A stretch of DNA of 64,000 bases. Origin: an uncultured Candidatus Saccharibacteria bacterium (GTDB lineage Bacteria > Patescibacteriota > Saccharimonadia > Saccharimonadales > JBBQAJ01). The stretch lies in contig CAZQZT010000002.1 in NCBI GenBank assembly GCA_964597925.1, positions 103,038 through 167,037 of the forward strand. Direction: 5' to 3'. The position numbers were made by a program, and so were the translations under genes. Of this stretch, positions 5,488-58,047 are shown one piece after another. How positions within the stretch are numbered: the first letter of the stretch is position 1; each line of letters begins with the position of its first letter. The notes beneath the pieces are model-generated. The model was not told where the DNA came from and made no database searches. It saw only the letters and a list, made by a program, of their open reading frames with translations.

Positions 5488-5586
5488 ATAATATGCGAAT
5501 CCTTTCATTATAGCGGTTATGGTAAATATCTGAAAACCATGTAAATCGTATAACGGTAGTGTCAAACATGTGCAAAGTACGCTATA

Positions 5587-6258
5587 GTGGTTGCAACAAT
5601 GCAACAGCCTTCCAGTATACCAGTTGCGCCGATGAGCGCAAGTGATGAAACAGCTCCTATTATAACTTCAAAACCGCCAAGCAAATGGGGAGGCGCTTTT
5701 TATACTATTGCTATTATAATTGCCGCTCCTTTGGTTGCTCTGACGCTGACGTCTTTTGTATTTCAGTCATACGAGGTAGATGGTCCGAGCATGGAAACTA
5801 CACTTCAAAATCAAGACAGATTGATAGTATGGAAGGCACCCCGCACGCTAGCGAAGATTACTAACCATACATATATACCTGAGCGAAGTGATGTGATTGT
5901 GTTTGTAAAACACGGACTATACGAAAGCCGAGGGTCACAAGAAAAACAACTAATAAAACGAGTGGTAGGACTGCCGGGAGACCGAGTAGTTGTGCAAGAT
6001 GGAAAGATTACTATATATAACACCGAAAATCCAGATGGCTACAATCCCGATTTGAATCAGGAGTTTTCTGAAAACATTGCTAGTGTCACAACCGGAAATG
6101 TAGATATAATTGTAGGCGAAGATGAAGTATTTGTATGCGGAGATAATCGTACTAATTCCCTAGATTCACGTGCTTTTGGCACGGTATCCGCAAACGATAT
6201 TATCGGGAAATTGACGATTAGGATATTCCCTATTAATAATTTCCAATCTTTTATCTAG
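5587..6258 (+). CDS. lepB: signal peptidase I
   Basis: TM anchor; catalytic Ser box (VDGPSMETTL); GDNRTNSLDSR box. The start may be the GTG at 5587 or the ATG at 5599. Confidence 0.9.
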   Translation: MVATMQQPSSIPVAPMSASDETAPIITSKPPSKWGGAFYTIAIIIAAPLVALTLTSFVFQSYEVDGPSMETTLQNQDRLIVWKAPRTLAKITNHTYIPERSDVIVFVKHGLYESRGSQEKQLIKRVVGLPGDRVVVQDGKITIYNTENPDGYNPDLNQEFSENIASVTTGNVDIIVGEDEVFVCGDNRTNSLDSRAFGTVSANDIIGKLTIRIFPINNFQSFI

Positions 6259-7109: not shown

Positions 7110-7872
7110 TTTGCGCTCCACTGGTTCGCTTAATAACCTCTTTTGTAAATTGTTTGTACGCCCTGGCGCCCTTAGACCATTTGTCGTGTTCAGAAATAGG
7201 TTTGCCATGACTAGGGGCTTCTGCCAGGCGAACATTGCGTGGAATTTGTGTTTTGAAAACGGCCTCATCGAAATATTTTTGCAGCTCACCAACCACTTGT
7301 TCTGCCAGAGACGTGCGACTATCATACATTGTCACTAGAACACCCAGTAAGTTTAGGTTTGGGTTAGTTGATTGTTTAATACGCTGGAACACATCCATTA
7401 GTTGACCAAGTCCTTCCATAGCATAGAATTCTGCCTGAACTGGCACTAACAGCCAATTTGCGGCTGTCAAAGCATTTATAGTTAGTAAACTAAGCGCTGG
7501 GGGGCAGTCTATTAGTATGTAGTCATACTCTAGCCCCTCTAGCCTCGTTTTAAGCAAACTTTCTCTGTTCTCTTGATCTTTAAGTTCGAGTTCAGCCGCA
7601 GCTAGATTGTTGTTTGCAGGCAATAAAGAAATACCAGTCTCTGGAGATACCAGAATGGCGCTATTTGCTTTTGTCAGCCCAAGCATAACCTGATAACTTG
7701 TGTTGTCAAGATTGTCGTCTAATCCCAGTCCACTAGTGGCATTACCTTGAGGATCAAAATCTACAATCAATACTGATTTATCCATTTTTGCCAAATATGC
7801 GGCGAGGTTAATCGTGGTCGTGGTTTTACCTACACCACCCTTCTGATTTAAAATCGCAATGATATGCATCAT
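7102..7872 (-). CDS. parA: chromosome partitioning ATPase ParA/Soj
   Basis: Deviant Walker A (NQKGGVGKTTTTINLA); ParA-type length and order, upstream of parB. Confidence 0.93.
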   Translation of the reverse strand: MMHIIAILNQKGGVGKTTTTINLAAYLAKMDKSVLIVDFDPQGNATSGLGLDDNLDNTSYQVMLGLTKANSAILVSPETGISLLPANNNLAAAELELKDQENRESLLKTRLEGLEYDYILIDCPPALSLLTINALTAANWLLVPVQAEFYAMEGLGQLMDVFQRIKQSTNPNLNLLGVLVTMYDSRTSLAEQVVGELQKYFDEAVFKTQIPRNVRLAEAPSHGKPISEHDKWSKGARAYKQFTKEVIKRTSGAQND

Positions 7873-8462: not shown

Positions 8463-9050
8463 TTATATAGAAAGGCTGTTTGCCGTCAATTTGAACCGTG
8501 CCTCTAGGGCTTCAAAATCTTCTATCTTTGCCTGCATAGACAGATAGAAGGCTTGGTTTTCATCCTTTAAAACAATGTATAGATCTTGGTGTGCTACCTT
8601 GCCGTCTGTACGAATATAAGTAAAAGATACACGTGCCGCCTGCTTGCCTGACTGGTTAAATTTTTCTTCTGACAGTTTTTTATAGTCCGGATAGCGGTCT
8701 GGTAATACCTTGTCGGTATTGGCCAGTAAAAGATCCATGGTACTGGTTTTTGCCAGCTGAGAAGGCAGTCGAAGTCCTTCTTCGTAACGAAGAGTTATGA
8801 GGTAGGGTGTTTGACCTTCACTGTTGGCTCTAAAGAGAAATTTATCTTCGCTGTCTTGCGTGGTAAGGGTTAGTTGCTTTGCTTCGGCTGGATAGGAAAG
8901 CTTGACTCCCTGCTTGTTGTCTTGGAATTGCTGTAGTGTAGCTGAGCCGTTTGAAGGCGTTTCAGGCGCCTTGGCTAATCTAACCAAGACTAACCAAAGA
9001 ACTAATGCTAAAACCAGTAAAAAAGCTCCTACGATTCCCACACGACGCAT
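8463..9050 (-). CDS. membrane-anchored extracytoplasmic protein, unknown function
   Basis: N-terminal anchor MRRVGIVGAFLLVLALVLWLVLV, then a ~160-aa alpha/beta-looking domain. Lies directly downstream of the giant ORF on the same strand. Confidence 0.6.
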   Translation of the reverse strand: MRRVGIVGAFLLVLALVLWLVLVRLAKAPETPSNGSATLQQFQDNKQGVKLSYPAEAKQLTLTTQDSEDKFLFRANSEGQTPYLITLRYEEGLRLPSQLAKTSTMDLLLANTDKVLPDRYPDYKKLSEEKFNQSGKQAARVSFTYIRTDGKVAHQDLYIVLKDENQAFYLSMQAKIEDFEALEARFKLTANSLSI

Positions 9051-9054
9051 GGAT

Positions 9055-9102
9055 AGTAGTCTAACAGTCCAGTAGTCTAACAGTCCAGTAGTATAGGCTA
9101 GA
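9055..9102. repeat. 16-nt tandem repeat (AGTAGTCTAACAGTCC x2 plus a degenerate third copy) between the giant ORF and the downstream gene
   Basis: Read directly at 9055-9070 and 9071-9086; partial copy at 9087-9102. TAGTATAGG recurs at 9089 and 9111. Confidence 0.8.
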
Positions 9103-9126
9103 CATAGTTCTAGTATAGGTGTTGGT

Positions 9127-12100
9127 TTAGTTGTTTGAGCTGGAGAGGGTTATCCAGCGATCGGACATGTAGATTAGGGTTATTGAATCGTTTGGACCTA
9201 GGGTAATGTTTGCACCACCAGGTAACTGAACCACCCCTGCTGAGTTGGTTATGGTAAAGGTATCATTTGTAGCATCTTGTTCGTTGTTTACTATGATAAG
9301 CATGTCACCATCTTTGGCGCTGGCTTCAGATATTGAAAGGTCTGGCACACCGCCGTTGCCAGTTTCGTCTGCATCCACGCGTACATAGCTGGCAGTTGGT
9401 GCCAGCGTATCGTTAGCTGTGCCGTCGTCTGTTAGATTAAGCGCTTGAACGCCTAGGCCGAGGCGATCTTCGATGAACAGGCTCGCCCCAGTACCAGTCA
9501 GCTCTACGCGGTCATCTGTTAATTCGTCATAGCCAAGGTATGCATCTTGATCTATTCCAAGCACCAAGCCAAGGCCATCGCCTAGATATATTGCATCTAG
9601 TTCGTATGCTGCTGAACCAAGAGTTATGCCTTCGGCTGTGCTTGGCAAAATATCTCCACTACTGGTAATACCGACTACTGCAACTATCTTTCCGGAGGCA
9701 TTTACTTGGAAAGCGTCCGCCGTACCTGCGAATAAGGTTCCAGATACATCTAGGTTGCCGGCTATGTTGGTGTTGTCCTGCAGGTTTATGGTGGTGCTGG
9801 CGTTGATGTTTAGCGTGGTTGTACTGGTTATATTTCCGCCATTGACGGCCAAATCGCCCGATAGCGTCGCAATAGCACCGGTGAAATTGTCACTCCCAAT
9901 ATCTATTGCGCCAAAACCATTACTGATTGAGCCGGCATTCAGAACGCCCGTACCAGTGATGGCTGTCGCTACCCCGTCATTGGTGTCGACCAGTGCAACA
10001 TCATGATTGTTCAGCAGACCTAGTTCAGTTGCATTGAGTGTCATACCCATGATGTCAAAGATATTTGTGTAACCCCCTGTTATACCGCTATTCGTAACAG
10101 TTAGAACACTTGAAATTGCCGTGCCAGTTTCTGCGTTATCAACCTCAATTACGTTATCTAGGCCTTGGTTGTGAGCGGAACTATTAATCTGTCTGATATA
10201 GATACCTCGAGTATTAGCATTGTTAGCAGTTGGTGTGGTATCTATGGCAATAATACCCAACGCGCTCGTACCAGTTGTTGTGTCGATATCGATGTTTTCG
10301 GTTGCGGCAAAGACATAATTCACCGTTGTACCAAAATTGATGGCAGTCGCGTTAGTTGCGCCGATATTTATGCTACCCACGGTACCACTAGCAGTCCCAA
10401 CATCTATGTTTATGTTACCCGAGTTACCGGATCCTCCGCCACTGGCGTTGCCACTCTTCAGTGTTAGATTAGCTGAGCTGATATTGGTCGTTTGGTTAAG
10501 GGTCTGTATGGTTTTGGTGCCGTCACTGAAACCAGCGGTACTGCCGAGGTTGATCGTAGACGTAGCATTGGCCCCAAGGTTGATTGTGGTGGCTGCGCCA
10601 AAGGCGTTTATAGTCGTAGAAGTAGTGTTGAACAGAACACCCATAATTTGATTGGTAGCAATAGTGCCGGAGTTAGCGTTGATTTGTCCAGACGTGGTGA
10701 TGACACCCGCGCCGGTAATACTCCACTCTGCGTCATTGAGTATGAGGTTTGAGCCCGAACTTGCCCCAATATTGATACCTAACGGACTATTGATGGTTCC
10801 GATGTTAATAGAACCTGAACTATCAAAGGTATTATCTCCAACATTTATATTTATATCTCCACTGGTCCCACCGGTGCTACCATCACCTGAAAGGAGCGAT
10901 ACGCTACCACCGACACCGCAACCGAAAAAACATGGTGCAATATCACCTTGAATTATGATGCTTTTGCCAGCACCACCGCCACCCTTTATGGTTGCAGTAC
11001 CGCTGCCATAAAAAGTTAGCCCACTGCCATCTAGGGTCGAATTTCCAGCCGTTATTGTAGGTGCATATATTGTCCCAATAGAGTTTATAGAAGTTAGGAC
11101 AGTACCATTTGCGTCCACAACCTCTAGAGCAAAACCAGAAAGTTTTTGTATTGTTAGAGACGCATAACCTACGTCGTCTCCTGTTAAGTATAGGTTTCCG
11201 TTTGATACTGCACCGTATCTCGGTGAAATTGCAACAAGGCCGTTATTTTGCACATAAACTTGTGGGACAGTATCTTTGACCAATTGCGCTCCCCACGCCG
11301 CAACGGTAGTACTACTGTTTGGTAGGATAATTTTTGGTGTGACGGCTGAAACACCCCCAGAGGTATTTTGGGTTACATAAAATCTCTGCCAGGTAGTGGT
11401 AGCAGTAAACGAACTAGCAGTACCTGTTACTGGTGAACCACCCGTGGTGTCGATACGTAAGTTTACGGTTGCTGTGCCACTGTTGGTCTTTACCCAAACA
11501 CTAAAAGTGTAGTTACCAGTTATGGAAGTTGCGTAGGTCTGTGCAAGCGTGCCGTTTATAGAAGTCGAGACCAACTTTTCGGCTGAAGTTTGACCATTTG
11601 GTGCAGGGTTGGAGCCACTATCATCCCCCGTGACAGTTAAGTTTGTAGTTGACCAGAGGGGCGAATCGTCTAGAGACTCACTTTGAGATATGAGGTTACT
11701 ATAAGAACCAAATCCACCGTTCGGCGTGCTTAATGAACCTATCGATTCTTGGTTACCTGCCGCATCAACACCTAATAGTTTTGAACCAAGAGAATTTGTT
11801 AGCTGGAAAAGGTCAGCAGTCTGTGAAGTAGCGCCCTGGATAACACCACCCACACTGCTTGCACTGGCGCTCTGGATTTTGAAGTTAGCGCTACTCTGGG
11901 TACTTGTACCGTTTTGGATATAGCCCGCAGCACCGGTAGATGCGGCGTAGCCACTACAGACGCTACCAGTGCTACATAGTGTGCCTGTTTCATTTGGCAG
12001 TGTCAGCGTGAGGCCTGCGCCAGGAGTAGTTGGTCCCCGTAGTGTAATACCATTTGCGCTACCGCTAGCGTAGAACAGTATTGAGCCAATATTCCCATTG

Positions 12101-15100
12101 GCTGTACCAAGACTGAGGGAATTTGAACCCTGTATAGAAGCTGTTCCTGCGATAGCCAAGCCAGCAAAACTAGGGCTCGCAACAGTATTGATATTTTGTA
12201 TGGTATTGACACTGTAAGCTCCGTTGGGGCCACCATCAGACACATTGAAGTTAGTACCATTAAAGCTCAGTGTACGCTCTGCGCTCAAGCCTGCTTCTGG
12301 CGCAAAAGTGAAATACTCTGCATTCGTCGGTGCATTGCCTCCACCAGAACCAGAACAGTTTTGCAGGGCAAACAGACAAAAATCGTCGGAGGCGCCCGCA
12401 TCAGGGATGGTATAGGTGTAATCGCCTGTTGTAGGAGCTACAACTATCGTAGCCGTATTACTGCTTCCGTCGCTAATTATGAGAGAACCGGCTTGCAGGG
12501 CTGCGCCCAAAGTAGCCGAACCGCCTTGAACAATCAGGCCTACACTAGTGGTTACGTTGACACCGTCATCAGTTAGGGTTGAATCCCCTACAGTTGAACC
12601 AGTAGAGGTGAATTTGGCTATTTGGTTATTGGTGCCAGCGCCAGTTACGCCACCGCCAGAGCCTGCACAGTTACCTAGATTCTCTAGACACAAAGTGTCA
12701 TTACCGCCAGCATCGGGTAATAAAACCGCATAGTTACTTGTTGGTGCTGCAAAATTAAGCGTTGCCGTAAACCCAGCATCTGTAACAGAAAGGCTGCTAG
12801 ACGCATTGCCTTGAATTGTGATGACTTGGCCGGTAGCACCTATAGTAAGAGCACCACTCGGCGTAATGGCCGTAAGAGCAGTCAGAGATGTAATGTCACT
12901 GTTGGCTCCACTTGCGGCAGCAGACAGGTTACTCCTAGCACTCGTAGCGTCAAGTGCACCAGTACCACCGTTCAGCACTGGCAATATACCGGTTACTTCT
13001 GTTGTGAGGTTAATGTCTGTTCCTAGTGTCGTCTGTAGAGCGCCACCAGATATTTGCAGGCCAGTCCCCGTAAGGTCGGTGAAAGCATCACTGTTAAAGG
13101 TAAACGCATCACCTGCTTGGACAGTTAGTCCACCATTGAGACTGGTAAGCCCCGTTACGCTAAATGTACTAGCAGCAGTAGTTGGGCCATTCAGACTAAC
13201 TGCACCCGCACCTGTTCCAAAGGTGCCCGCACCTGTTTGAATGAAGCTGCTGGTTACGGTGGTTGCGCCATCCAAACTGACTGCACCCGTACCTGTGCTA
13301 AACGTGTTTGTACCTGTCTGATTGAAATCAGCGTTCAAAGTCACATCGCCGTTTAGTGTCGTGTTCCCCGTGCCGGTAGTGAAAGTGCCTGAACCCGTTT
13401 GAATGAAGTCCGTGTTATTTAGTAGATTTAAGATACGGCTTGTGCTGTCAACTGCTACTAAGCTCGTTCCGGCTGCGTTGGTAACGTTGAGCGCCTGCGT
13501 ATTATCTGTCCAAGTGCGAATGACAACATTGTCGCTACGAATATTAATATCTCCATCTGTTCCAGTGCCGTCTCGTCGGCCAGTTTCTATATTTAGAGTG
13601 CCCCCATTTCCGTTACCACCGGCTCCTGCGGCACCGCTGAGAAGCGTTAAAGTACCACCCGTACCAGTGCCATTTCCTTCGGCACCCTTAACCCTAAGAA
13701 TCCCCCCGTTGGCGTTCAGGGTAGTTGGCTTCAGCTGGTTTATGGTTCTAGTAATTCCTGAGTTACCACCAAATGATAAATCACCAAACGTCGCGTCACT
13801 AGCGGGCGTGCTGCTGCCTGAGGATACACCTATTTTGCCAGTTACCTGTAGTGCTAAACCGGTATTGGTGCCGTTGTTTATATCTAGCACACCCCCAGTA
13901 AGGGCTGAACTCGAGTTTCTAAAAGTGTAAAGATATTCGCTGTTAGGCACCGCAACAGTAGCCGTGTCTTGAATGATTTTGGATAAATATCTACCGTCGT
14001 TCCCGGTGGAACAAGGCGATGAGTTTGAAGTTGTGCATATGACACCGCTTTCTGTGGGCAGAGTTAGTATATAATTGCCCGTCACACCTGAGCCTATAAG
14101 AGACTGTAGAGTAATACTCCCTCCGCCATCGTACGCGAATTGCAGCTGTCCTAAGTTATCTGTTCCAGAAGTCCCAATGCTACCAATTTGCACTTTATTG
14201 CCTACTGTCTGATGAAGTCGCACATCGTCTACGTAGAAATTCACGCCGCTTGCTTCTGCCGAATTCGTTCTTCGAACGTGAATATTGTGTGAAGGATGGG
14301 TAATATTTGTAGTAAAGCTACAGACAAATTGACTCCATCTTGGCGCCGCGGTGCTACCTTGGGTGGCTTTACTGATCGTACAATCAAGGGCGAACTGTCC
14401 ACCACCCAGTAATTGGTGCCCTATAACTATATCGTTTATGCTTGGAGTACCTACCTCGGCCATAATCCACATCGATAGCACATACGACGAATTTACTTGT
14501 GTGATGACTGGTATGGTTGCGCCATCTCCTGTGTTATTTGTAGTGGTAACTCTCATGGAACGCGAACCAGTGTGTACGTATTGAACATCTGAATTTGTAT
14601 TAATATCTGGCGTACCTGCTTGTGCTGGGTACTCTTGGGTCACCCAGCTAACTGGATCTACCCCCGGTGTGTCGGACTCAAATGTTCCATTGTTTATTAG
14701 GTTTGTGTACGTGTCGTATACGGTACTGACATTGAGTACCGAATTGCTGGCGGAATTTTGCACTTGGAAGACATTGGTTGAGTCTACTGTGCTTCTGAAC
14801 AATCCGTTACCAAAAGCTGAGAGGTTGCCTGCAACTGAAATAGTATTGCCCGACTGCGTAAGCAGAGAATCCCCTATCACGTCTGCGCTCGTGAACATTG
14901 GAATGGTTCCTGGTGTACCACCAGCTGTGGTTACACTAGAACCAGCACCTGATGACTCATCATTGGTACACAAAACCTGACCGAGGTTGTTGGTAGTCAG
15001 CGAGCCGCCATTTAGGAAAACCGTACAGTTGATGGGCAGCGTAAGCGTGCCGCCGATGTTAAGGTTGCCGCTCAAAGTGGCGCTGGCAAACGTTGGCGAG

Positions 15101-15852
15101 CTGGTTATGCCAATGTCTTGTGGAGTAGAAAGTGTGATAACTCCGTTACTATTGGTAACGATTATTTGATTCCCTGTACCTTGTAGGGTAATTCCGCCAA
15201 TCATGCCGTTGAGTAAGCTTGAGGCCGGTACATCATCTGGCTGGTTGATGAGACCAACGACCGCAGCAAGATCTTCGTTGGTCACGAGGTCACAGTTGTT
15301 GGTGCTCAAACAAAAAGTGCCCGAAGCATTCGGAAGTGTGTAGGTTTGGTTAGCCGTTAGAGTTTCTGTACTTAGGGTTCCTGCGAAACCGCTGTTTACA
15401 ACCTTCAGGCTACCGCTTGTAATAATGTCTCCATTTACAAAAAGTGAGCTTTTTGCACCCTTTATCTCCGCCGGTAAATCTGCAATCTCTGCATCTTTTA
15501 GAGATAGGTCTTGAGTTTGAATAACTGATTGACCATTTTGCTGGGCTTTGGGTGCTTTGCGAGCCAAAATAAGTATACTTGCCCCTGTAAATAGTGTCAC
15601 TACGAGCGCTATGGCTATAGAAACTATCACAGCTTTACGGTGAGAAAATGGCAGGAGTTTAGCGTGAGGAGTGTATTGGCTTGCCTGTGCTGCAGTACCT
15701 TGCTCATGAACTTCGAGATCTTCAATGGGATAGTTCTTTTGCGGCAAACCGTACTGGGCTACGAACGGCTGAGTCGTAGTTGACGCGGCCTTAACCGAAG
15801 TTACAGTATCGGGATTATTAGAATTATCAGCTTTGAGCTGAGAGTTATCCAT
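9127..15852 (-). CDS. giant (2,241 aa) single-pass membrane-anchored fibrous surface protein; putative adhesin / host-recognition fibre
   Basis: Uninterrupted 6.7-kb ORF. About 73 aa of N-terminus, then one TM (AVIVSIAIALVVTLFTGASILILA), then a T/S/G/N/A-rich ectodomain with internal repeats, two jelly-roll/CBM-like modules and tail-fibre-like motifs. All antisense ORFs in the track are short composition artefacts. Confidence 0.85.
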   Translation of the reverse strand: MDNSQLKADNSNNPDTVTSVKAASTTTQPFVAQYGLPQKNYPIEDLEVHEQGTAAQASQYTPHAKLLPFSHRKAVIVSIAIALVVTLFTGASILILARKAPKAQQNGQSVIQTQDLSLKDAEIADLPAEIKGAKSSLFVNGDIITSGSLKVVNSGFAGTLSTETLTANQTYTLPNASGTFCLSTNNCDLVTNEDLAAVVGLINQPDDVPASSLLNGMIGGITLQGTGNQIIVTNSNGVITLSTPQDIGITSSPTFASATLSGNLNIGGTLTLPINCTVFLNGGSLTTNNLGQVLCTNDESSGAGSSVTTAGGTPGTIPMFTSADVIGDSLLTQSGNTISVAGNLSAFGNGLFRSTVDSTNVFQVQNSASNSVLNVSTVYDTYTNLINNGTFESDTPGVDPVSWVTQEYPAQAGTPDINTNSDVQYVHTGSRSMRVTTTNNTGDGATIPVITQVNSSYVLSMWIMAEVGTPSINDIVIGHQLLGGGQFALDCTISKATQGSTAAPRWSQFVCSFTTNITHPSHNIHVRRTNSAEASGVNFYVDDVRLHQTVGNKVQIGSIGTSGTDNLGQLQFAYDGGGSITLQSLIGSGVTGNYILTLPTESGVICTTSNSSPCSTGNDGRYLSKIIQDTATVAVPNSEYLYTFRNSSSALTGGVLDINNGTNTGLALQVTGKIGVSSGSSTPASDATFGDLSFGGNSGITRTINQLKPTTLNANGGILRVKGAEGNGTGTGGTLTLLSGAAGAGGNGNGGTLNIETGRRDGTGTDGDINIRSDNVVIRTWTDNTQALNVTNAAGTSLVAVDSTSRILNLLNNTDFIQTGSGTFTTGTGNTTLNGDVTLNADFNQTGTNTFSTGTGAVSLDGATTVTSSFIQTGAGTFGTGAGAVSLNGPTTAASTFSVTGLTSLNGGLTVQAGDAFTFNSDAFTDLTGTGLQISGGALQTTLGTDINLTTEVTGILPVLNGGTGALDATSARSNLSAAASGANSDITSLTALTAITPSGALTIGATGQVITIQGNASSSLSVTDAGFTATLNFAAPTSNYAVLLPDAGGNDTLCLENLGNCAGSGGGVTGAGTNNQIAKFTSTGSTVGDSTLTDDGVNVTTSVGLIVQGGSATLGAALQAGSLIISDGSSNTATIVVAPTTGDYTYTIPDAGASDDFCLFALQNCSGSGGGNAPTNAEYFTFAPEAGLSAERTLSFNGTNFNVSDGGPNGAYSVNTIQNINTVASPSFAGLAIAGTASIQGSNSLSLGTANGNIGSILFYASGSANGITLRGPTTPGAGLTLTLPNETGTLCSTGSVCSGYAASTGAAGYIQNGTSTQSSANFKIQSASASSVGGVIQGATSQTADLFQLTNSLGSKLLGVDAAGNQESIGSLSTPNGGFGSYSNLISQSESLDDSPLWSTTNLTVTGDDSGSNPAPNGQTSAEKLVSTSINGTLAQTYATSITGNYTFSVWVKTNSGTATVNLRIDTTGGSPVTGTASSFTATTTWQRFYVTQNTSGGVSAVTPKIILPNSSTTVAAWGAQLVKDTVPQVYVQNNGLVAISPRYGAVSNGNLYLTGDDVGYASLTIQKLSGFALEVVDANGTVLTSINSIGTIYAPTITAGNSTLDGSGLTFYGSGTATIKGGGGAGKSIIIQGDIAPCFFGCGVGGSVSLLSGDGSTGGTSGDININVGDNTFDSSGSINIGTINSPLGINIGASSGSNLILNDAEWSITGAGVITTSGQINANSGTIATNQIMGVLFNTTSTTINAFGAATTINLGANATSTINLGSTAGFSDGTKTIQTLNQTTNISSANLTLKSGNASGGGSGNSGNINIDVGTASGTVGSINIGATNATAINFGTTVNYVFAATENIDIDTTTGTSALGIIAIDTTPTANNANTRGIYIRQINSSAHNQGLDNVIEVDNAETGTAISSVLTVTNSGITGGYTNIFDIMGMTLNATELGLLNNHDVALVDTNDGVATAITGTGVLNAGSISNGFGAIDIGSDNFTGAIATLSGDLAVNGGNITSTTTLNINASTTINLQDNTNIAGNLDVSGTLFAGTADAFQVNASGKIVAVVGITSSGDILPSTAEGITLGSAAYELDAIYLGDGLGLVLGIDQDAYLGYDELTDDRVELTGTGASLFIEDRLGLGVQALNLTDDGTANDTLAPTASYVRVDADETGNGGVPDLSISEASAKDGDMLIIVNNEQDATNDTFTITNSAGVVQLPGGANITLGPNDSITLIYMSDRWITLSSSNN

Positions 15853-33962: not shown

Positions 33963-35720
33963 TTAGAGCGTTCTAGCAACTGTCTCTCGAGTAAAGAATT
34001 CTAGATGGTCGCCTTCTAAAATTTCTAGCTTGCTAGTGGTAGAAAGGCTTACGCCACACATGTCGCCTTCGAATACCTCTTTGGTTTCTTGGGGACCACG
34101 CTTAAGTAGTGTGGCTTCAACTTCCGCTAAGGTTTTTTTGTCTCTAACGAGACGTACTAATGCTGGAACCGTTAGTTTACCCTTAGTAACTTCGCCACCA
34201 CAGATAATTTCTTTTTTGGAGGTTTTAAAAACACCCTTTACCACTAAGCGCCCGAGGTCCGTTTCTACTATTTCTGGCGGTAATAGTAACTGTAGTTCTG
34301 CTTTGGTGTCGTCAATGAGTTCGTAGATTACTTTGTAGAGACGTATAGGCACCTTGTCTCTGGAAGCAAGTTGTTTGATGTTGGTAGGCATTTGTACATG
34401 GAAGCCATAGAGAATAGCCCCCGTAGTTGCGGCTAGATGAACGTCGTTTTCGTTAATATTACCAACTCCTGAACCAACCACACGAATGGCAACTTCTTCT
34501 GTATCTAAAGCCTTGAGGCTGTCAATCACTGAGGTGAGCGAACCTTGGACGTCGGCTTTGACAATGATATTTAGTTCGTTGACTTCGTTGCTACGGTTGA
34601 TCATACGTATGAGTTCACCGCTGTTTATGTCCATCCTGCCGCCACTTTTTTGATCTGTAGCTGACTGGCTAGCTTTGGCACGAGCCGTTTTTTCATCTAC
34701 TACCGCAACGAAAGTATCTCCAAATTCTGGAAGCGACTTAAAGCCAGTCATAACAACAGGAGTAGATGGACCGGCCTGCTTGAGCACTTCACCACTGGTA
34801 GATTCTAGATTTCGTATGCGAGCATAGCTACTACCCGCTACAACAAACTGGCCTGGTTTGAGCGTACCAGCCTCTACAAGCGCTTCTGCGACTGAACCTC
34901 GCCCTTGTTCCATGTGAGCCTCAATAATCAAACCTTGGGCGGGTACGTCCGTGTCAGCACGTAAATCTTCTACATCAGCCACTAGCAGAATCATATCTAG
35001 TAGGTGCTGTACACCGTCTCCTGTTTTGGCAGAGACAGGAGCAACTACGATATCACCACCCCATTCTTCAATAAGCAAGTCTTGTTCTGAGAGCTGTTGT
35101 TTTATACGATTTACGTCTGCGCCTTCTTTGTCCATCTTATTTATGGCAACAATGATTTTGACGCCAGCTTTGCGGGCAAAGCGAATGGCTTCTACTGTTT
35201 GCGGTTTTATACCGTCATCGGCGGCGACAACTATGATTACAACATCTGTGAGAGCAGCGCCGTGCTCACGCAAGGCGGCGAAGGCTTCATGGCCGGGAGT
35301 GTCTAGGAAGGTGATTTGTCTATCAGCGTGTTTTATCTGATAGGCAGATATGTGCTGGGTGATACCGCCCGCTTCTGATTTGACCACCGTGGCGCCACGG
35401 ATATTGTCTAGCAAACTGGTTTTGCCGTGGTCTACGTGACCCATAACAGCTACCACTGGTGGGCGCTGACCAGCCGATTTGCTAGCTGTGGGCTTTTCGC
35501 GCACGGTCTCTGTTTTACTGGCATCTTTTTTGGCAAGCTCTATGTCTAGGTCCAGTTCTCCAACAATAATCTGGGCTGTGTCGTAATCTATTCGCTCGTT
35601 TACGGTTGCCATAACACCATTTTTCATAAGCTCGGTTATGAGCTTGGTCACGGGTATACTTAACTGCTCCGCCAGATCACCCACTGTGATCATATTATCT
35701 ATTTCTATGGTGGTTGGCAT
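33963..35720 (-). CDS. infB: translation initiation factor IF-2 (short form)
   Basis: G-domain [39 protein letters not shown] upstream of the ATG at 35720. Confidence 0.94.
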
Positions 35721-39695: not shown

Positions 39696-39731
39696 TGAAA
39701 AGATAAAGGACTCCCTTTCGGAAGTCCTTTA
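39696..39731 (-). terminator. terminator after 5S rRNA
   Basis: Minus strand: AAAGGACUUCC-GAAAG-GGAGUCCUUU, then UAUCUUUUC, starting 7 nt after the 5S end. Confidence 0.6.
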
Positions 39732-39737
39732 TATAAT

Positions 39738-40070: not shown

Positions 40071-43295
<3,225 letters not shown>

Positions 43296-43540: not shown

Positions 43541-43569
43541 ATCTTATCACCAATAACAGGGGCGGTCAA
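43541..43569 (-). promoter_or_regulatory. candidate sigma-70-type promoter for 23S-5S
   Basis: Minus strand: TTGACC (43564-43569), 17 nt, TAAGAT (43541-43546). About 240 nt upstream of the 23S 5' end. Confidence 0.4.
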
Positions 43570-43658
43570 GCATATTCTGATGTCAAACTTGCTACGCTTT
43601 TACAGTTTAGAAGGAACTAATAAGTACCTAAACTAGCGTAGCAAGTTCTCTGTTATGC

Positions 43659-45401
43659 TTATTTTGTAGTTAGAACGACTAAATTTGAAGCAACTGACTT
43701 GTTGTTGCTTGTATCGACAGCCTGGATGTAATAGGTGTATTTAGTCTTGCGGGCAACGTTTGTATCTGTATATGTCAGACTCGTAGTCTTGGCATAGAGG
43801 ATGCCGTTTCGATATACCCAGTATTCTTTTACGGCTACGTTATCTTTGCTAGCGGTCCAGGTAAGCTTTGGCTTACCGTTCTGTAATCCTCCAGATAGTA
43901 CTGATGCTGTTGGAGCAGTAGTGTCAGTCGGAGACGTAAGTGTACCTAGCGCACGATTCAAGTTTGGCAGAGGACCAATGTTGCCACTCAACGTACCAGC
44001 GCTGGTGTTTTGCAAAGTTCCGGTTTGAATCAAAGTGCTGCGTATTTGTGCAGGAGTCAGTAGTTTACCTGGGTTGAGCGTTTTATATGCAGAGCTTAGC
44101 GATGCTATCGCTGAAGCTACAATTGGAGCAGCCGAACTTGTGCCATTGAAGTTTGATGTATATGCACCATTTGGTGTGGTACCTGCTTCTAATGCACCAT
44201 AACCAGCCGTTGTTACACATTCTCCATGACCTTGTAGTTCAACACGTGATCCATAATTGCTAAAGTACAATCGAGCATTTAGCGGTGCGGCACAAGCAGA
44301 ACCCGCGCCAGCAATCACTGAACCAGAGCTAACTTTGCCCATAGGAAACGTTGTGCCCCATACAGCAGTATCGTCTAGGTTATGACCGCTGTTAGCTGCT
44401 GCCTGTACAACGTTTATGCCGCTATCTGTCAGTGCTTTTATGGCGTCATATATAGCTGGCTCCCATTCAACCGGTGCATAGCCGCCTACGCTTGATGGAG
44501 CCCATGTTTGCTGTTCAATAAGCACTACGTCGCCAGGTACAGCTCGAGTAGCAGCAGTCTGCAGTGCACCCACTATATCCCAGCCACGTTCTTGATTGTA
44601 GGTATTAACTCGTGACAATGCCGCCCCACTAACTGCGCCAGTTACGCCCGTGCTATTATCTGTAGCAACTATCTCGCCCAACACTGCCGTACCGTGGTTG
44701 GAGTCATTAAAAGGATCTGCCGGAGTTCCGTTATTTAGATTGCTACCGACGGCTTTTGCTAAATCTTCATGACTAGCGTTCCAGCTGTATTCTAGATCAA
44801 TTACACGAACCGCACTACCGTTTCCGCCAGGAATAGTTTTGGCATAGGCAGAGTCAATCCCATAGGGGCTGGCGTTTAGGTATTTCTGCAAACTAGTGTA
44901 GTTGTTTACAGTAGGAGCTGGAGCGGGCTTGGATTGTGGATATACAGTTTCCACGCTGTCCAATAATGCAATCTTACCGACAAGTGCTTGTATGTTGTCA
45001 CTTGGCTTAACTTTAACTACAAAATAGTCGTCAAGATTACTGGCTAGTTTCTTACTATAAGCAGTTTCTGGTTCGCTACTTTGACCCACTAGTTTTTCTA
45101 GCTTTTGCTTGCCGGCATCATTTAGAACCTTGTTTAGGTTGCTGGCTTTGGCTTGAGACTTGGTGGTTTTTGGTTTGAAGTTGCTGGACTGGTCTATTTC
45201 CAGCTGCGCGGTATCTTTTAGCTTAACTATCAGACTATCATTGCGATATTTCTGACTGTCAGAATAATCATTGTTTGGACTTGAACCAGCGCCAACAGCG
45301 CTACCGGAACCGAACAGATTAGTAGCGACCAATAGTGTTGCCAGAAACGTCGATAGAACAGATACCGGAACTTTACCAAAACGTGTATTTCGTAACTTCA
45401 A
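43659..45401 (-). CDS. secreted subtilisin-family (S8) serine protease with propeptide-like N-region and C-terminal FN3-like domain
   Basis: Signal peptide (MKLRNTRFGKVPVSVLSTFLATLLVATNLFG). Catalytic D (VRVIDLEYSW), H (SNHGTAVLGEIVA), N (AAANSGHN), S (NGTSSAAPIVAS). C-terminal beta-sandwich (KPKLTWTASKDNVAVKEYWVYRNG...YTYYIQAVDTSNN). TTG start with SD GGUGAGG. Confidence 0.9.
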   Translation of the reverse strand: MKLRNTRFGKVPVSVLSTFLATLLVATNLFGSGSAVGAGSSPNNDYSDSQKYRNDSLIVKLKDTAQLEIDQSSNFKPKTTKSQAKASNLNKVLNDAGKQKLEKLVGQSSEPETAYSKKLASNLDDYFVVKVKPSDNIQALVGKIALLDSVETVYPQSKPAPAPTVNNYTSLQKYLNASPYGIDSAYAKTIPGGNGSAVRVIDLEYSWNASHEDLAKAVGSNLNNGTPADPFNDSNHGTAVLGEIVATDNSTGVTGAVSGAALSRVNTYNQERGWDIVGALQTAATRAVPGDVVLIEQQTWAPSSVGGYAPVEWEPAIYDAIKALTDSGINVVQAAANSGHNLDDTAVWGTTFPMGKVSSGSVIAGAGSACAAPLNARLYFSNYGSRVELQGHGECVTTAGYGALEAGTTPNGAYTSNFNGTSSAAPIVASAIASLSSAYKTLNPGKLLTPAQIRSTLIQTGTLQNTSAGTLSGNIGPLPNLNRALGTLTSPTDTTAPTASVLSGGLQNGKPKLTWTASKDNVAVKEYWVYRNGILYAKTTSLTYTDTNVARKTKYTYYIQAVDTSNNKSVASNLVVLTTK

Positions 45402-45427
45402 ATCAAATACCTCACCTTTACAGCGCC

Positions 45428-45456
45428 ATTATACCACCTACTATTGAATTTGTCAA
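45428..45456 (-). promoter_or_regulatory. perfect consensus sigma-70 promoter of the protease gene
   Basis: Minus strand: TTGACA (45451-45456), 17 nt, TATAAT (45428-45433). About 27 nt upstream of the TTG start. Confidence 0.75.
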
Positions 45457-45473
45457 CTACTACGTTTTGTGTC

Positions 45474-45501
45474 TATAAAAAACCCACCTTTCGGTGGATT
45501 C
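45474..45501 (-). terminator. rho-independent terminator directly after tRNA-Ala
   Basis: Minus strand: AAUCCACC-GAAA-GGUGGGUU followed by UUUUUAUAG. Confidence 0.7.
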
Positions 45502-45507
45502 TTTATT

Positions 45508-45738: not shown

Positions 45739-45980
45739 CTACTTGAACTGGGCTATTGTACCCGATTTCCCTCTGTTAAACAACTGGCCCATAAAAAGAG
45801 CGCCTCTCGCAGGGGCGCCCTTATTGTTAAAAACATATATAGTGCAATCAACGTCAGGTCGGTTCAAAACTGGTATCTCGTCCTCTTGCGAGGAAAAGTA
45901 GATTATCAGTTTTGACAATAATCTACCAAGATCGACCTAGCTCGCACAGGATTGCTCCGCATGCTGCTAGTTTTCTCCCT

Positions 45981-47531
<1,551 letters not shown>

Positions 47532-47705
47532 AAAGTAGAATATGATCATGAAACAGTCGAACATGTAATTCTCGAAAGAACTACACTGACTTAATTTTCA
47601 AAAAACAATTCAAATGAACTGACGTTGATTTGCACTATATAAGTTTTTAACGAACTGACTTTTCTAGAGACACCTTAACAAGAACTCCGAAAAGACGTAA
47701 GGGCT

Positions 47706-47734
47706 AGTGTACCTATCCGCACCCCTTATGTCAA
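47706..47734 (-). promoter_or_regulatory. candidate 16S promoter
   Basis: Minus strand: TTGACA (47729-47734), 17 nt, TACACT (47706-47711). About 175 nt upstream of the 16S 5' end. Confidence 0.5.
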
Positions 47735-55233: not shown

Positions 55234-58047
55234 TTACTTTGGCTGTAAATTGCCGTCACGATCTATTACTATTGTATCTGCTTCGGAGTTTTCGCTAGAA
55301 TCTGCTGTGCGGAGCTTTAGTTCACCTTCAATATTTGCATCTGTTTTGGTTGAGTTATTAATAATGTTTTGCTGAGTTTTAAGGTTCTGTGTAGGTGCAT
55401 ATGTAGGAGCGGGATTCTTGGGTGAACCCATGTCATTGGTTGCTGAAGTAGGGCTGGCAGTTTTTCGTTTGGCTAGCCATTCGTCAAGAAAAGAAGAGCC
55501 GCTACTAGCTGGTTTTGGCGCCGAACCAAGCGCTCCAGCGCCAGTGGGACTGGCTCCAAACGCACCAGGAGCGGGTTTTCCAAAAGCTGGTTTTGGTACT
55601 TCTATGGTTTTCATTCGCTTAGTGATCTCTTCGTCCACGATCGCCCGCGGTCTGCCAAATTTTGCTGCCGAAAGTTGCCTAAGCGCTTGTTCAAGCCTTG
55701 GATTCGGCGTACCAAGAGCCGGCAAAGCCGCCATACTAAAAGGCTGCGTCGGCACACCGTTTATGAGCGTACGTACAACTGCGTTAAAGTTTGGGACACG
55801 GAGAATGTCATCTGCCTCAAAAATAGGCTTGAAATAGCGCGACAATGCCTCCACGTCGTTTTGTCCCACGCGGAACGATACTATAGTACCCATGTTCCCA
55901 AATACTGCATCACGAATCTCTTCGGATAGCTGCGTCGTAAACTGGTTGGCCACTATCAAGTTCAGGTGATATTTACGAGCTTCAGACATAATTGTCGCAA
56001 ACGAATCAGTAGAAAAGTTTTGGAATTCATCCACATACAGACAAAAATCAGGCCGTTCAGACTCTTCCACGTTCGCCCTACTCATAGCCGCAGCCTGAAA
56101 TTTCATCACAAAAATCATACCCAACAGTTTGGCATTTAACTCGCCTGTACGGCCTTTGCTCAGGTTTACTAGCAAGATTTTTTTGTTATCCATGATGTCG
56201 CGTAGGTCAAATGCACTCTTGGTCTGGCCAATTATGTTTCGCATCATGCTGTTCGACAAAAACGCGCCAAACTTACTAACAAACCAGCTCACCACCTCAC
56301 CGAATTCATTAGAACGTTGCGACTGAGGCATTTCTTTTTGCCAAAATTCCAACACTGTTGGATCAGTAACATATTTGAGTTTTTGCTTTACAAATTCTGG
56401 ATCCCTAAACAATTTGGGAATATCGATAAAACTACCACCCTGCGGGTCGGCCATAACCGTCAATGCGGCATTGCGAAAAAGGTGTTCGTAGCGCGGACCA
56501 ATAATTCCCTGGTGTTGCGGATCATAAAGTTTATAAAGCATATTTATAGCCTCTTGGATCAAAAAGTCTTTCTGATCGGCAGTATCAGCTTCGAAAAGGT
56601 TCAAACCGAGTGGGTAGTCGGTTTCTGCTGGACAGAAGTATATAACGTCTTCTGTGCGCTCTCTAGGCACCATCCCAAGTAGTCGCTCTGCAGTGTCGCC
56701 GTGTGGATCTATAAATGCGAAGCCATTGCCATTCAGCATGTCCTGCAAAGCCATATTTTCCAAAAACCACGATTTACCCACACCAGTCTGGCCCACAACA
56801 TACATATGCCTGCGCCGATCTTCATCTGCCAGTCGCACGGCTTTTTTGGCACCCCTAAAGATGTTATAGCCCATTAGCAAGCCTTCATCCGGCATATTCC
56901 GCGGACCATCAACCTGCTTACTAGCCTGACGTTCCAACTGACTTGTCGGTATGTTTTTCTGATCTGGAAAGTGAAACAGCGTAGACAGTTCTACAGTATT
57001 TAATACATTTTGGTTATTTTCCTGGGGGAAAAACCGGAGTATATACGCCGTTACAAACCGCTCTATGTCCTTTGCGGAAGTGTACTGAAAACCATTCCTG
57101 CCAGGTGCATCAAACAACGCAAAAGTAGCTACTACATTATTCAAAATAGCTTGTGCCCTATGCGATATGTTAGAAGATGCCACCACTCGAATCAGCACTT
57201 CGTAGCCAGCATGGCGAGTTTTATCATCTATAGCATCCAGTGTTGTCTGGTCTAGGGAGGATAAATCATGCTTGCCACCACCATTACTGCTTTTATCTTC
57301 TGGTGGTTTCACTGCCGCGCTAAACAACTGCTTCAGCCACCAAAAAGCTAAATCACCACCCTTTTTACTCTGATGGCCTTTACGTTTTTTATTGGCTATT
57401 GCCTGTGCATGCTTGCGCCATCCGCTCGCTGCCGGCCGCAACATTATCTGCACGCCCGCCCCATCGTCTTTCTCTAGTGTTGAGAGTGCATTTAAAAGAG
57501 ACTGTATGGCGTCACGCTTTAGGTCTTGAAATGTAGCAATCGGGTAAGCAAAGGGTTCCTTAAGTGTCAATTCGCCTCCCATAGTACCGCTTATTTTGCC
57601 CACGGGACTAAATATATTGTGTTCCGCTACTTCCTCTAAACGTGCAGTTGGATAAGCGCTAACTATGGCTTGGCGTACTACATCAACTAATGCCACCGGC
57701 ACAGCCGCATAAAAGCTCACAAAACCCCTAGAGCCAACTATCTCAAATGCAATGTGCCGCTGACCATAAAAACGACTCTTGAAGCCCTTTTGCATCGTAC
57801 TGGCAATAATGTCGTACATGATTTGGGCTTTAGATATGTTTTCTTCGTTTACATCTCTTTCATCTCTATTACTACCCTCTACATCCTCGCTAAGTGGTGG
57901 CAAATGTATGAGTAATGGAACCATTTTGAGCCCACGTTCAAAATTTTTCTGTTCTCTGAATATCTTGCGTACCTGAAAAAACACAATTGGCCCAACTATC
58001 AGCAACAGTACCAGGATGAAACCAAGTGCGGTCAGTAAAATACTCAT
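55234..58047 (-). CDS. membrane-anchored P-loop ATPase of the TraD/VirD4 coupling-protein / HerA-FtsK superfamily
   Basis: N-terminal TM (ILLTALGFILVLLLIVGPIVFF). Walker A HMYVVGQTGVGKSWF followed by FAFIDPHGD. Walker B CLYVDEFQNF, then ARKYHLNLIVANQFTTQL. About 130 aa of A/G/P/S-rich low-complexity C-terminus. Confidence 0.7.
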   Translation of the reverse strand: MSILLTALGFILVLLLIVGPIVFFQVRKIFREQKNFERGLKMVPLLIHLPPLSEDVEGSNRDERDVNEENISKAQIMYDIIASTMQKGFKSRFYGQRHIAFEIVGSRGFVSFYAAVPVALVDVVRQAIVSAYPTARLEEVAEHNIFSPVGKISGTMGGELTLKEPFAYPIATFQDLKRDAIQSLLNALSTLEKDDGAGVQIMLRPAASGWRKHAQAIANKKRKGHQSKKGGDLAFWWLKQLFSAAVKPPEDKSSNGGGKHDLSSLDQTTLDAIDDKTRHAGYEVLIRVVASSNISHRAQAILNNVVATFALFDAPGRNGFQYTSAKDIERFVTAYILRFFPQENNQNVLNTVELSTLFHFPDQKNIPTSQLERQASKQVDGPRNMPDEGLLMGYNIFRGAKKAVRLADEDRRRHMYVVGQTGVGKSWFLENMALQDMLNGNGFAFIDPHGDTAERLLGMVPRERTEDVIYFCPAETDYPLGLNLFEADTADQKDFLIQEAINMLYKLYDPQHQGIIGPRYEHLFRNAALTVMADPQGGSFIDIPKLFRDPEFVKQKLKYVTDPTVLEFWQKEMPQSQRSNEFGEVVSWFVSKFGAFLSNSMMRNIIGQTKSAFDLRDIMDNKKILLVNLSKGRTGELNAKLLGMIFVMKFQAAAMSRANVEESERPDFCLYVDEFQNFSTDSFATIMSEARKYHLNLIVANQFTTQLSEEIRDAVFGNMGTIVSFRVGQNDVEALSRYFKPIFEADDILRVPNFNAVVRTLINGVPTQPFSMAALPALGTPNPRLEQALRQLSAAKFGRPRAIVDEEITKRMKTIEVPKPAFGKPAPGAFGASPTGAGALGSAPKPASSGSSFLDEWLAKRKTASPTSATNDMGSPKNPAPTYAPTQNLKTQQNIINNSTKTDANIEGELKLRTADSSENSEADTIVIDRDGNLQPK

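Follow-up and report, generated by a model that had tools for sequence, protein, structure and literature searches.

How is a ribosomal RNA (rRNA) locus transcribed when a protein-coding gene stands between its 16S and 23S genes? The question is raised by a stretch of 64,000 nucleotides (nt) from an uncultured Candidatus Saccharibacteria bacterium (contig CAZQZT010000002.1; the whole 64-kb stretch is hereafter the window), whose single rRNA locus carries a gene for a predicted secreted protease of the subtilase family (S8). A preliminary description of the window gave the order 16S, tRNA-Ile, tRNA-Ala, terminator, promoter, subtilase gene, hairpin, promoter, and 23S-5S, with about 2.7 kb between 16S and 23S; its coordinates all proved correct, and we measured the distance as 2687 nt (from 45983 to 43295).

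From the signals and comparisons described below, we consider it likely that the locus is built of four autonomous units on the same strand and is not one operon. The first would comprise a 16S promoter, the 16S gene, and a hairpin with a U-run; the second, a promoter of its own, tRNA-Ile, tRNA-Ala, and a strong intrinsic terminator; the third, an extended -10 promoter of consensus sequence and, under its control, the gene for a secreted prepro-subtilase whose C terminus is an FN3-like domain; and the fourth, a 23S promoter conserved across the phylum, a leader hairpin, a boxA-like box, 23S, 5S, and a terminator.

Results

Organization of the rRNA locus and integrity of its assembly

The rRNA and tRNA genes were called with Rfam and ARAGORN; all units lie on the minus strand, and positions refer to the window (Table 1). 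The locus is flanked by gyrB and gyrA upstream of 16S and by a DUF308 gene downstream of 5S. In the gap between 16S and 23S, the sole long open reading frame (ORF) is that of the subtilase (45401-43659; 1743 nt, 580 amino acids (aa), TTG start). The locus thus departs from a canonical co-transcribed rrn operon in that its spacer holds a protein-coding ORF besides the tRNAs, and also in that internal signals are present at the sequence level, namely a terminator (45506-45475), a promoter matching the consensus at 12 of 12 positions, and a 23S promoter block. The 16S-to-23S distance exceeds the 1500 bp above which, reportedly, Brewer et al. regard rRNA genes as unlinked. It also exceeds the threshold of 2000 bp used by Lui et al. 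(PMC8172020), who additionally ask for opposite-strand or non-connecting genes; the ORF of the window is on the same strand.

We compared the locus with approximately 150 related loci, designated by L numbers; the 16S gene of the window shares 99% identity with that of L003 and 98% with that of L087. These identities underlie the taxonomic placement of the window, since L003, in common with L001, L002, and others from the same scan, is a metagenome-assembled genome labelled Saccharibacteria or Saccharimonas. As rRNA regions of metagenomes are often misassembled, the arrangement might be an assembly artefact, or else a recent insertion of a functionless gene now decaying, a reading that would fit L001, where the protease cassette lies elsewhere, and L002, where the cassette is followed by a 23S promoter block that breaks off. 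The tRNA-Ala/ORF/23S junctions are, however, base-for-base the same in six independent Logan assemblies from other sequencing runs, with identical contigs coming from the series SRR8670872-SRR8670882, which rules out misassembly. Moreover, all relatives have a full-length ORF of 556-601 aa, the catalytic Asp, His, Asn, and Ser are invariant in 33 sequences, and the divergence of the protease from that of L087 (71% protein identity) is in line with that of gyrA (79%) and gyrB (75%). We therefore regard an artefact or a pseudogene as scarcely credible. The same comparison gives no sign that the protease evolves unusually fast. Two further pairs with L003, DUF308 and rpsA, were discarded as measures of divergence because they are not orthologues (16-22% identity).

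Signals delimiting the 16S and tRNA units

Upstream of the 5′ processing arm of 16S lies a candidate promoter that agrees with the consensus at 10 of 12 positions, and the 3′ processing arm, conserved in L003 and L087, is followed by a boxA-like box and a GC hairpin with a U-run, the candidate end of the 16S unit. At the position matching this hairpin, L087 has a different hairpin with a T-run. The processing stems were located with an inverted-repeat finder; RNAduplex applied to whole flanks was dropped, as it gave loop-ridden duplexes and mismatched controls came close to the true pairs (-96 and -74 against -109 and -98 kcal/mol). Separate stems around 16S and 23S, which the preliminary description had pointed out, are indeed present. 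Since such stems are normal for any rrn operon, they are uninformative on the independence of the units.

The tRNA pair appears to form a module with signals at both ends. Its candidate promoter lies in a block (CAGTTGTTTAACAG..GGTACAATA) that is common to the window, L003, and L087 although the sequence upstream of it differs: similarity between L003 and the window ends directly after the 16S 3′ stem and the boxA-like box and is regained at this block, the interval in L003 being filled with 2.7 kb of opposite-strand ORFs. A TTGTnT-17-TAnAAT version stands upstream of many metagenomic tRNA pairs, inverted pairs included. Behind tRNA-Ala, the good terminator claimed earlier is borne out: a GC-rich hairpin is followed directly by a U-run, as is also the case after 5S (39732-39703). 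Scored against shuffled sequence, as were all hairpin folds, it reaches -18 kcal/mol with z = -5.9, none of 200 shuffles folding equally well. Near-identical terminators follow the tRNA pairs of L003, L189, L124, and L112, and a hairpin with A- and T-tracts occurs after the pair in 17 of 39 loci across the phylum.

A conserved candidate promoter module upstream of 23S

The second promoter of the preliminary description, a candidate 23S promoter at 43541-43569, turned out to belong to a widespread element. Six protease-linked loci with 44-82% protein identity were aligned over the region preceding 23S. The aligned block has the form CGTAGCAAGTTTGACATCAGAATATGCTTGACC-N17-TAAGAT, its -35 hexamer and flanking bases being invariant and its -10 in register in all six; behind it come, in this order, a leader hairpin, an invariant TTAACAA (boxA-like), and the processing stem. 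A metagenome scan with the 23S-stem sequence returned at least 120 Saccharibacteria-type rRNA loci, biased toward Joint Genome Institute (JGI) soil, rhizosphere, and peat samples, and among those listed 87 were informative, having at least 650 nt upstream of 23S. CTTGACY.CC.CTG with an extended -10 at 17-18 nt is found 220-600 nt before 23S in 46 of these 87, and TTAACAA within 650 nt upstream of 23S in 54. The block is also present in compact 16S-tRNA-23S loci such as L137 and L143. Being conserved across Saccharibacteria, it identifies the candidate 23S promoter of the window as the local copy of a conserved element.

The same 87 loci show how variably 23S is combined with the other genes. 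In 16 loci the tRNAs share the strand of 23S and lie no more than 700 nt from it, in another 16 they are 0.7-9 kb away, in 13 they are inverted, and one locus has mixed tRNA orientation; the remaining 41 have neither tRNA nor 16S in the available upstream sequence, which extends beyond 2 kb in 24 of them.

These observations bear on the possibility that the locus is one long operon after all, transcribed entirely from the 16S promoter, with antitermination through the hairpins, cutting by RNase III and RNase P, and internal promoters that are minor or silent. All genes are close together on one strand, boxA-like boxes follow 16S and precede 23S, no U-tract terminator stands behind the protease gene, and comparable same-strand cases were conservatively scored as operonic by Lui et al. 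(PMC8172020). Such an operon would nevertheless have to pass the canonical strong terminator after tRNA-Ala, and its internal promoters are more strictly conserved than the surrounding sequence. The modules also occur in relatives where co-transcription is impossible: the tRNA pair, located between 16S and 23S or upstream of 23S, lies on the strand opposite to the rRNAs, and so cannot be functionally co-transcribed with them, in the 13 listed loci mentioned above (L128, L133, L153, L161, L163, L184, L186, L189, L195, L203, L107, L112, and L173), and in L003 the 2.7 kb of opposite-strand genes intervene. Together with the 24 listed loci in which the more than 2 kb available upstream of 23S contain neither 16S nor tRNA, this makes a single operon improbable in our judgment.

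Some further properties of the 23S promoter region deserve mention. The element upstream of the -35 hexamer (43596-43575 in the window) is a near-perfect palindrome in some loci (GTAGCAAAAGTTGCTAC in L112) and a half-site in others (GTAGCAAGTTTGACA in the window), with matching positions in L094, L112, L137, and others; possibly it serves as an operator through which 23S transcription is regulated. The GCCYCTGTT of the promoter spacer is conserved as well, which is unusual for a plain promoter. L209 (6826-9240) carries two promoter blocks (6826 and 8751) and two 23S 5′ ends (7150-7439 and from 9092 onward) with a glycosyltransferase-2 gene between the two copies, indicating a duplication or an insertion within the 23S 5′ region.

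Table 1. Positions of the genes and candidate signals of the rRNA locus in the window, in the order of transcription.
Feature	Position	Strand	Details
Candidate 16S promoter	47706-47734	-	TTGACA-17-TACACT; 10/12 consensus; upstream of 16S 5′ processing arm
16S processing stem arms	47651-47609, pairing with 45867-45826	-	Inverted repeats I2, I6; 82-95% complementary
16S rRNA	45983-47533	-	Rfam RF00177, 1456.6 bits; full length
BoxA-like box after 16S	45834-45823	-	GTTTTTAACAAT; read from sequence
GC hairpin with U-run, candidate end of 16S unit	45820-45791	-	-15 kcal/mol, z = -1.0
Candidate tRNA-module promoter	45755-45783	-	TTGTTT-17-TACAAT; ends 16 nt before tRNA-Ile
tRNA-Ile(GAT)	45738-45662	-	ARAGORN; Rfam tRNA 67-68 bits (range for both tRNAs)
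tRNA-Ala(TGC)	45584-45508	-	ARAGORN; Rfam tRNA 67-68 bits (range for both tRNAs)
Candidate tRNA-module intrinsic terminator	45475-45506	-	A-tract, CCACC-GAAA-GGUGG, U6
Candidate protease promoter	45428-45456	-	TTGACA-17-TGgTATAAT; 12/12, extended -10
Prepro-subtilase (S8) gene	43659-45401	-	580 aa; TTG start; Shine-Dalgarno AGGTGAGG at 45417-45410
Post-protease hairpin	43585-43648	-	-27 kcal/mol, z = -4.1
Candidate 23S promoter module	43541-43596	-	CGTAGCAAGTTTGACATCAGAATATGCTTGACCGCCCCTGTTATTGGTGATAAGAT; TTGACC-17-TAAGAT; -35 at 43569-43564, extended -10 at 43549-43541
23S leader hairpin	43531-43471	-	Inverted repeat I8
BoxA-like box before 23S	43422-43414	-	CTTAACAAT; TTAACAA invariant in six protease-linked loci
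23S processing arms	43351-43303 (5′), 40036-39988 (3′)	-	Inverted repeat I1
23S rRNA	43295-40070	-	Rfam RF02541, 2577.6 bits
5S rRNA	39850-39736	-	Rfam RF00001, 90.5 bits
Candidate intrinsic terminator after 5S	39703-39732	-	13-bp stem with T-run; -19.1 kcal/mol, z = -5.6

The protease gene travels with its own predicted promoter

Apart from the TTGACA-17-TATAAT promoter ascribed to the protease gene, no sequence on either strand of the window matches the sigma-70 consensus at 12/12, and 11/12 matches number three: before rplU (L21), before rpsA (S1), and inside a gene. Fifteen orthologues with upstream sequence (35-82% protein identity) were available for comparison, and a promoter is found at 12/12 in eight of them and at 11/12 in four (12 of 15 in total), 52-76 nt before the start codon (52-64 except in L009) and often with a TGn extension. 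It is kept whichever neighbour lies upstream, be it tRNA-Ala, another tRNA, or an unrelated protein gene, and it is also found in non-rRNA contexts (L001, L004, L007-L010, and L015). Since the promoter is retained whatever the neighbours, promoter and ORF appear to form a cassette that constitutes a conserved autonomous transcription unit, one that is probably very strongly transcribed.

The preliminary description had attributed strong, growth-coupled expression to the position of the gene among the rRNA units. The strength and independence of the unit find support in the conserved promoter; the position does not appear to be their source, given that the promoter travels to non-rRNA contexts. 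As for growth-rate coupling, reading the 15 orthologue upstream sequences revealed no conserved GC-rich discriminator or other growth-rate element, and the coupling is speculation, as is the idea that the protease serves to feed on host protein.

The 3′ boundary of the protease unit and possible read-through into 23S

At its 3′ end the protease unit is less sharply bounded than had been stated. The long hairpin reported there exists, yet it lacks a U-tract, being followed only by UUUG, and therefore does not have the form of an intrinsic terminator. It is not conserved either: its counterpart in L087 is weak, and no terminator-like structure was found after the protease gene in L005, L011, L003, L001, or L006. 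With its 3′ arm, CGTAGCAAG, the hairpin extends into the conserved block that precedes the 23S promoter. Transcripts started at the protease promoter may thus run on into the 23S leader.

One could go further and propose that protease and 23S-5S are fused into one unit, with the strongest promoter of the region feeding 23S-5S by read-through and the coupling of their output being the reason why the adjacency was kept. The absence of a U-run behind the hairpin, the absence of any terminator in L005, L011, and L003, and the sharing of the hairpin 3′ arm with the 23S upstream block would all suit this proposal, as would the recurrence of the protease upstream of the 23S block, directly or with one ORF between, in about 10 lineages, with a remnant in L002. 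On the other hand, a separate, conserved 23S promoter is retained throughout these loci, other ORFs stand between protease and 23S in L003, L088, and L209, and the protease promoter is retained where no 23S follows (L006, L001, L004, and L007-L010). We hold the fusion to be unlikely. An elaboration of it seems to us similarly doubtful, in which RNase III would separate the protease messenger RNA from pre-23S at the 23S stem, secretion of a nutrient-releasing protease would co-vary with ribosome production, this coupling would explain the adjacency down to 44-54% identity, and the conserved, partly palindromic GTAGCAA...TTGCTAC immediately before the 23S -35 hexamer would be the binding site of a regulator shared by both transcripts.

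The gene encodes an intact prepro-subtilase

That the gene codes for a subtilase with a signal peptide, as first described, and that it is intact are corroborated by several analyses. The protein matches Peptidase S8 (PF00082) over residues 201-461 with 63.8 bits (cut-off 21.8), and phmmer aligns it with the Protein Data Bank sequences of subtilisins BPN′, DY, and E at 1e-8 to 1e-6; in all, 728 homologues were found. The residues D202 (VIDLEYSW), H236 (NHGTAV), and S422 (NGTSSAAP), which follow the Asp-His-Ser order of the S8 triad, and the oxyanion-hole residue N337 (AAANSG) are invariant in 33 aligned orthologues. A type VII secretion mycosin was ruled out (TIGR03921, 35.1 bits against a cut-off of 278.75).

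The N terminus, MKLRNTRFGK-VPVSVLSTFLATLLVATNLF-GSGSAVGA, has the basic n-region, hydrophobic h-region, and small-residue c-region of a signal peptide, with a 15-residue Kyte-Doolittle maximum of 2.13 preceded by four Lys/Arg residues, and by the same heuristic 30 of 33 orthologues have a signal-peptide-like N terminus. We infer export through Sec. Next to the signal peptide (residues ~1-37), the domain layout comprises a propeptide (~46-160), the catalytic domain (~178-485), and an FN3-like domain (491-580). In an AlphaFold2 model (confidence score, pLDDT, 81), the alpha/beta fold and the propeptide are both recognizable, the best Foldseek matches being unautoprocessed pro-subtilisin E (3whi) and pro-Tk-subtilisin (2z2z and 2e1p) over 450-490 columns with E = 2e-12. 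The superposition on these structures identifies residues ~46-160 as a propeptide packed on the catalytic domain, which by analogy with subtilisin E would be removed autocatalytically; the Pfam I9 propeptide profile gave no match to the protein.

The predicted protein therefore shares signal peptide, N-terminal propeptide, alpha/beta catalytic domain, and D-H-S triad with prepro-subtilisins such as subtilisin E and Tk-subtilisin, which we take to belong to MEROPS family S8A. It differs from them in its low sequence identity (17-25%), in long insertions modelled with low confidence (residues 248-255 and 397-402), and in the additional C-terminal domain, which resembles FN3-type domains found in chitinase A1 and in further enzymes acting on glycans. 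The closest relatives of the protein beyond Saccharibacteria are S8 proteins from Actinomycetes, Acidimicrobiia, and Lysobacter, all uncharacterised, with ~45-49% identity in the catalytic domain. No paralogue occurs in the window, where two further ORFs have a similar length of about 580 aa (3859-5604 and 33963-35720); neither is related to the protease, and the second encodes IF-2.

Reach of the association between protease and 23S

We counted a locus as showing the association when the protease gene precedes the 23S promoter block either immediately or with a single intervening ORF, and expressed relatedness as protein identity to the protease of the window. The association is found in L087 (71%), L214 (67%), L211-213 (54%), L011 (51%), L215 (49%), and L005 (44%), and, with an ORF between protease and 23S, in L003 (82%), L088 (74%), and L209 (53%). 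In L002 (68%), the promoter block after the protease gene stops inside the -10 (TAAGGG as against TAAGAT; positions 5760-5850) and no 23S lies behind it; this broken block may mark a rearrangement breakpoint or a chimeric contig of a metagenome-assembled genome. Counting direct neighbours, those one ORF away, and the truncated remnant, the protease is beside the 23S block in 10 of 11 lineages at 49% identity or more. L006 (45%; 16S 88% identical) has the order 16S-Ile-Ala-protease followed by opposite-strand genes, and more distant orthologues (L004, L007-L010, L015, and others) have the protease elsewhere. The association is thus probably ancestral within a clade and is not required for the gene.

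Cargo and rearrangements in related spacers

The survey of spacer synteny suggested by the preliminary description showed cargo and rearrangement to be widespread, with the protease-23S arrangement confined to one clade among the loci compared. In addition to the opposite-strand ORFs between 16S and the tRNAs, L003 has a 333-aa ORF before 23S; neither this ORF nor the five small ones on the opposite strand matched any Pfam family significantly, and so none of them is pyrD. Other cargo consists of an ORF of about 860 aa in L088 and L209, four small ORFs in L215, and, in L087, a GIY-YIG ORF and a partial tRNA-Ile copy.

The tRNA regions of two of these loci show signs of rearrangement. In L003 (3995-4215), tRNA-Ala is followed by a terminator-like hairpin, an insert of ~150 nt, and a second tRNA-Ala 3′ end (GTCGAGTCCCCGTTGCTCCACCA) with a terminator of the type seen in the window. 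Integration at a tRNA gene typically leaves such a duplicated 3′ end behind. L087 (8367-9813) has the tRNAs in the order Ala then Ile, opposite to the window; its GIY-YIG ORF encodes a LEM-3-like endonuclease (8965-9729), and the partial tRNA-Ile copy, 58 nt long (9756-9813), lies directly upstream of the protease promoter.

Further protein families recur upstream of 23S in the environmental loci listed. Large low-complexity proteins rich in Thr, Ser, Gly, and Asn (273-2540 aa), which look secreted or surface-exposed, are encoded ~0.4-1.6 kb upstream of 23S in 20 of them (including L092, L101, L109, L111, L120, L124, L140, and L172), a family of single-pass membrane proteins of ~180 aa in 12, and Kelch-like repeat proteins in five.

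Other features of the window

The 23S gene spans 3226 nt, compared with 2925 positions in the Rfam model. An extra segment of ~64 nt (23S positions ~2470-2533, within 40753-40839 of the window) is missing from L003 and coincides with a 24-nt inverted repeat (I3), which gives it the appearance of an intervening sequence or of an expansion of the hairpin type; in several metagenomic loci (L137, L155, and L183) 23S spans 4.4-6 kb, suggesting larger insertions. Elsewhere in the window, a 2241-aa ORF occupies 9127-15852 on the minus strand, and a 937-aa ORF at 55234-58047, with weak AAA_22, HerA, and TraG-D_C matches, may encode a type IV secretion coupling ATPase.

Discussion

Taken as four autonomous units, the locus has to be reconciled with a number of observations that weigh against this reading. 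That the motifs act as promoters and terminators is inferred from sequence throughout. The hairpin ending the 16S unit folds no better than shuffled sequence, the -35 hexamer of the tRNA promoter (TTGTTT) is poor, and the block containing it is also boxA-like and could be an antitermination element instead of a promoter. With a hairpin that has no U-tract and is not conserved, the protease and 23S units may be co-transcribed. Finally, L001, at 79% identity one of the close relatives, carries the protease cassette elsewhere; a tblastn search with the protease found it in none of the 120 listed metagenomic rRNA loci, which makes the association clade-specific and not phylum-wide; and its ancestry would be deduced from the comparison of about a dozen loci.

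Protein genes in the spacer are already known for this phylum, and the protease is a new cargo. Literature searches for a subtilisin or serine protease of Saccharibacteria yielded no relevant work. For oral Saccharibacteria, Murugkar et al. (2020, PMC7651992) report between one and five variously oriented coding regions, among them pyrD and one for a protein of 79 aa, and a 2025 preprint (PMC12424978) reports pyrD and a hypothetical gene in the spacer of TM7x. In other members of the Candidate Phyla Radiation, protein genes, often homing endonucleases, occur in 16S-23S or 23S-5S spacers, and small genomes often have unlinked rRNA genes (PMC8172020). The view that spacers normally hold only tRNAs, from which the preliminary description started, accordingly fails for this phylum.

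The window resembles the oral Saccharibacteria, whose tRNA order is variable (PMC7651992), in that its 16S-23S spacer holds tRNA-Ala(TGC), tRNA-Ile(GAT), and one or more protein genes. It differs in its cargo, a single S8 protease and no tRNA-Val, whereas the cargo listed in PMC7651992 and PMC12424978 comprises dihydroorotate dehydrogenase (pyrD), a protein of 79 aa, and hypothetical proteins, plus tRNA-Val. The promoters, terminators, and modular transcription that we propose for the window have no counterpart in the passages of those papers considered here, and in PMC8172020 two Saccharimonadia genomes are called operonic, transcription signals not being part of that analysis. Unlike the homing endonucleases frequent in such spacers (PMC8172020), the gene of the window would encode a secreted hydrolase with its own promoter. 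An independent 23S-5S promoter recalls Buchnera, Wolbachia, Borrelia, and Helicobacter, as cited in PMC8172020 and PMC12424978, where 23S-5S is expressed independently of 16S; in those bacteria 16S and 23S are usually far apart, while in the window only 2.7 kb separate them, both are on one strand, and a putative third unit is formed by the tRNA pair.

If each rRNA and tRNA unit has its own promoter, the junctions between units become permissive sites, at which insertion of a gene, or inversion or relocation of a unit, would be tolerated without harm to rRNA synthesis. The protease cassette of promoter and ORF would be one such cargo, which settled directly upstream of the 23S promoter in the ancestor of the clade and was retained. 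Modular promoters would thus offer a simple reason for the tolerance of the phylum to spacer insertions. The split locus itself accounts for the failure of long-read amplicon methods spanning 16S, the internal transcribed spacer, and 23S to detect these organisms (PMC12424978). A secreted subtilase with a conserved consensus promoter would, moreover, be a good candidate for a highly abundant exported protein of the epibiont and, as such, a candidate for the study of epibiont-host interaction.

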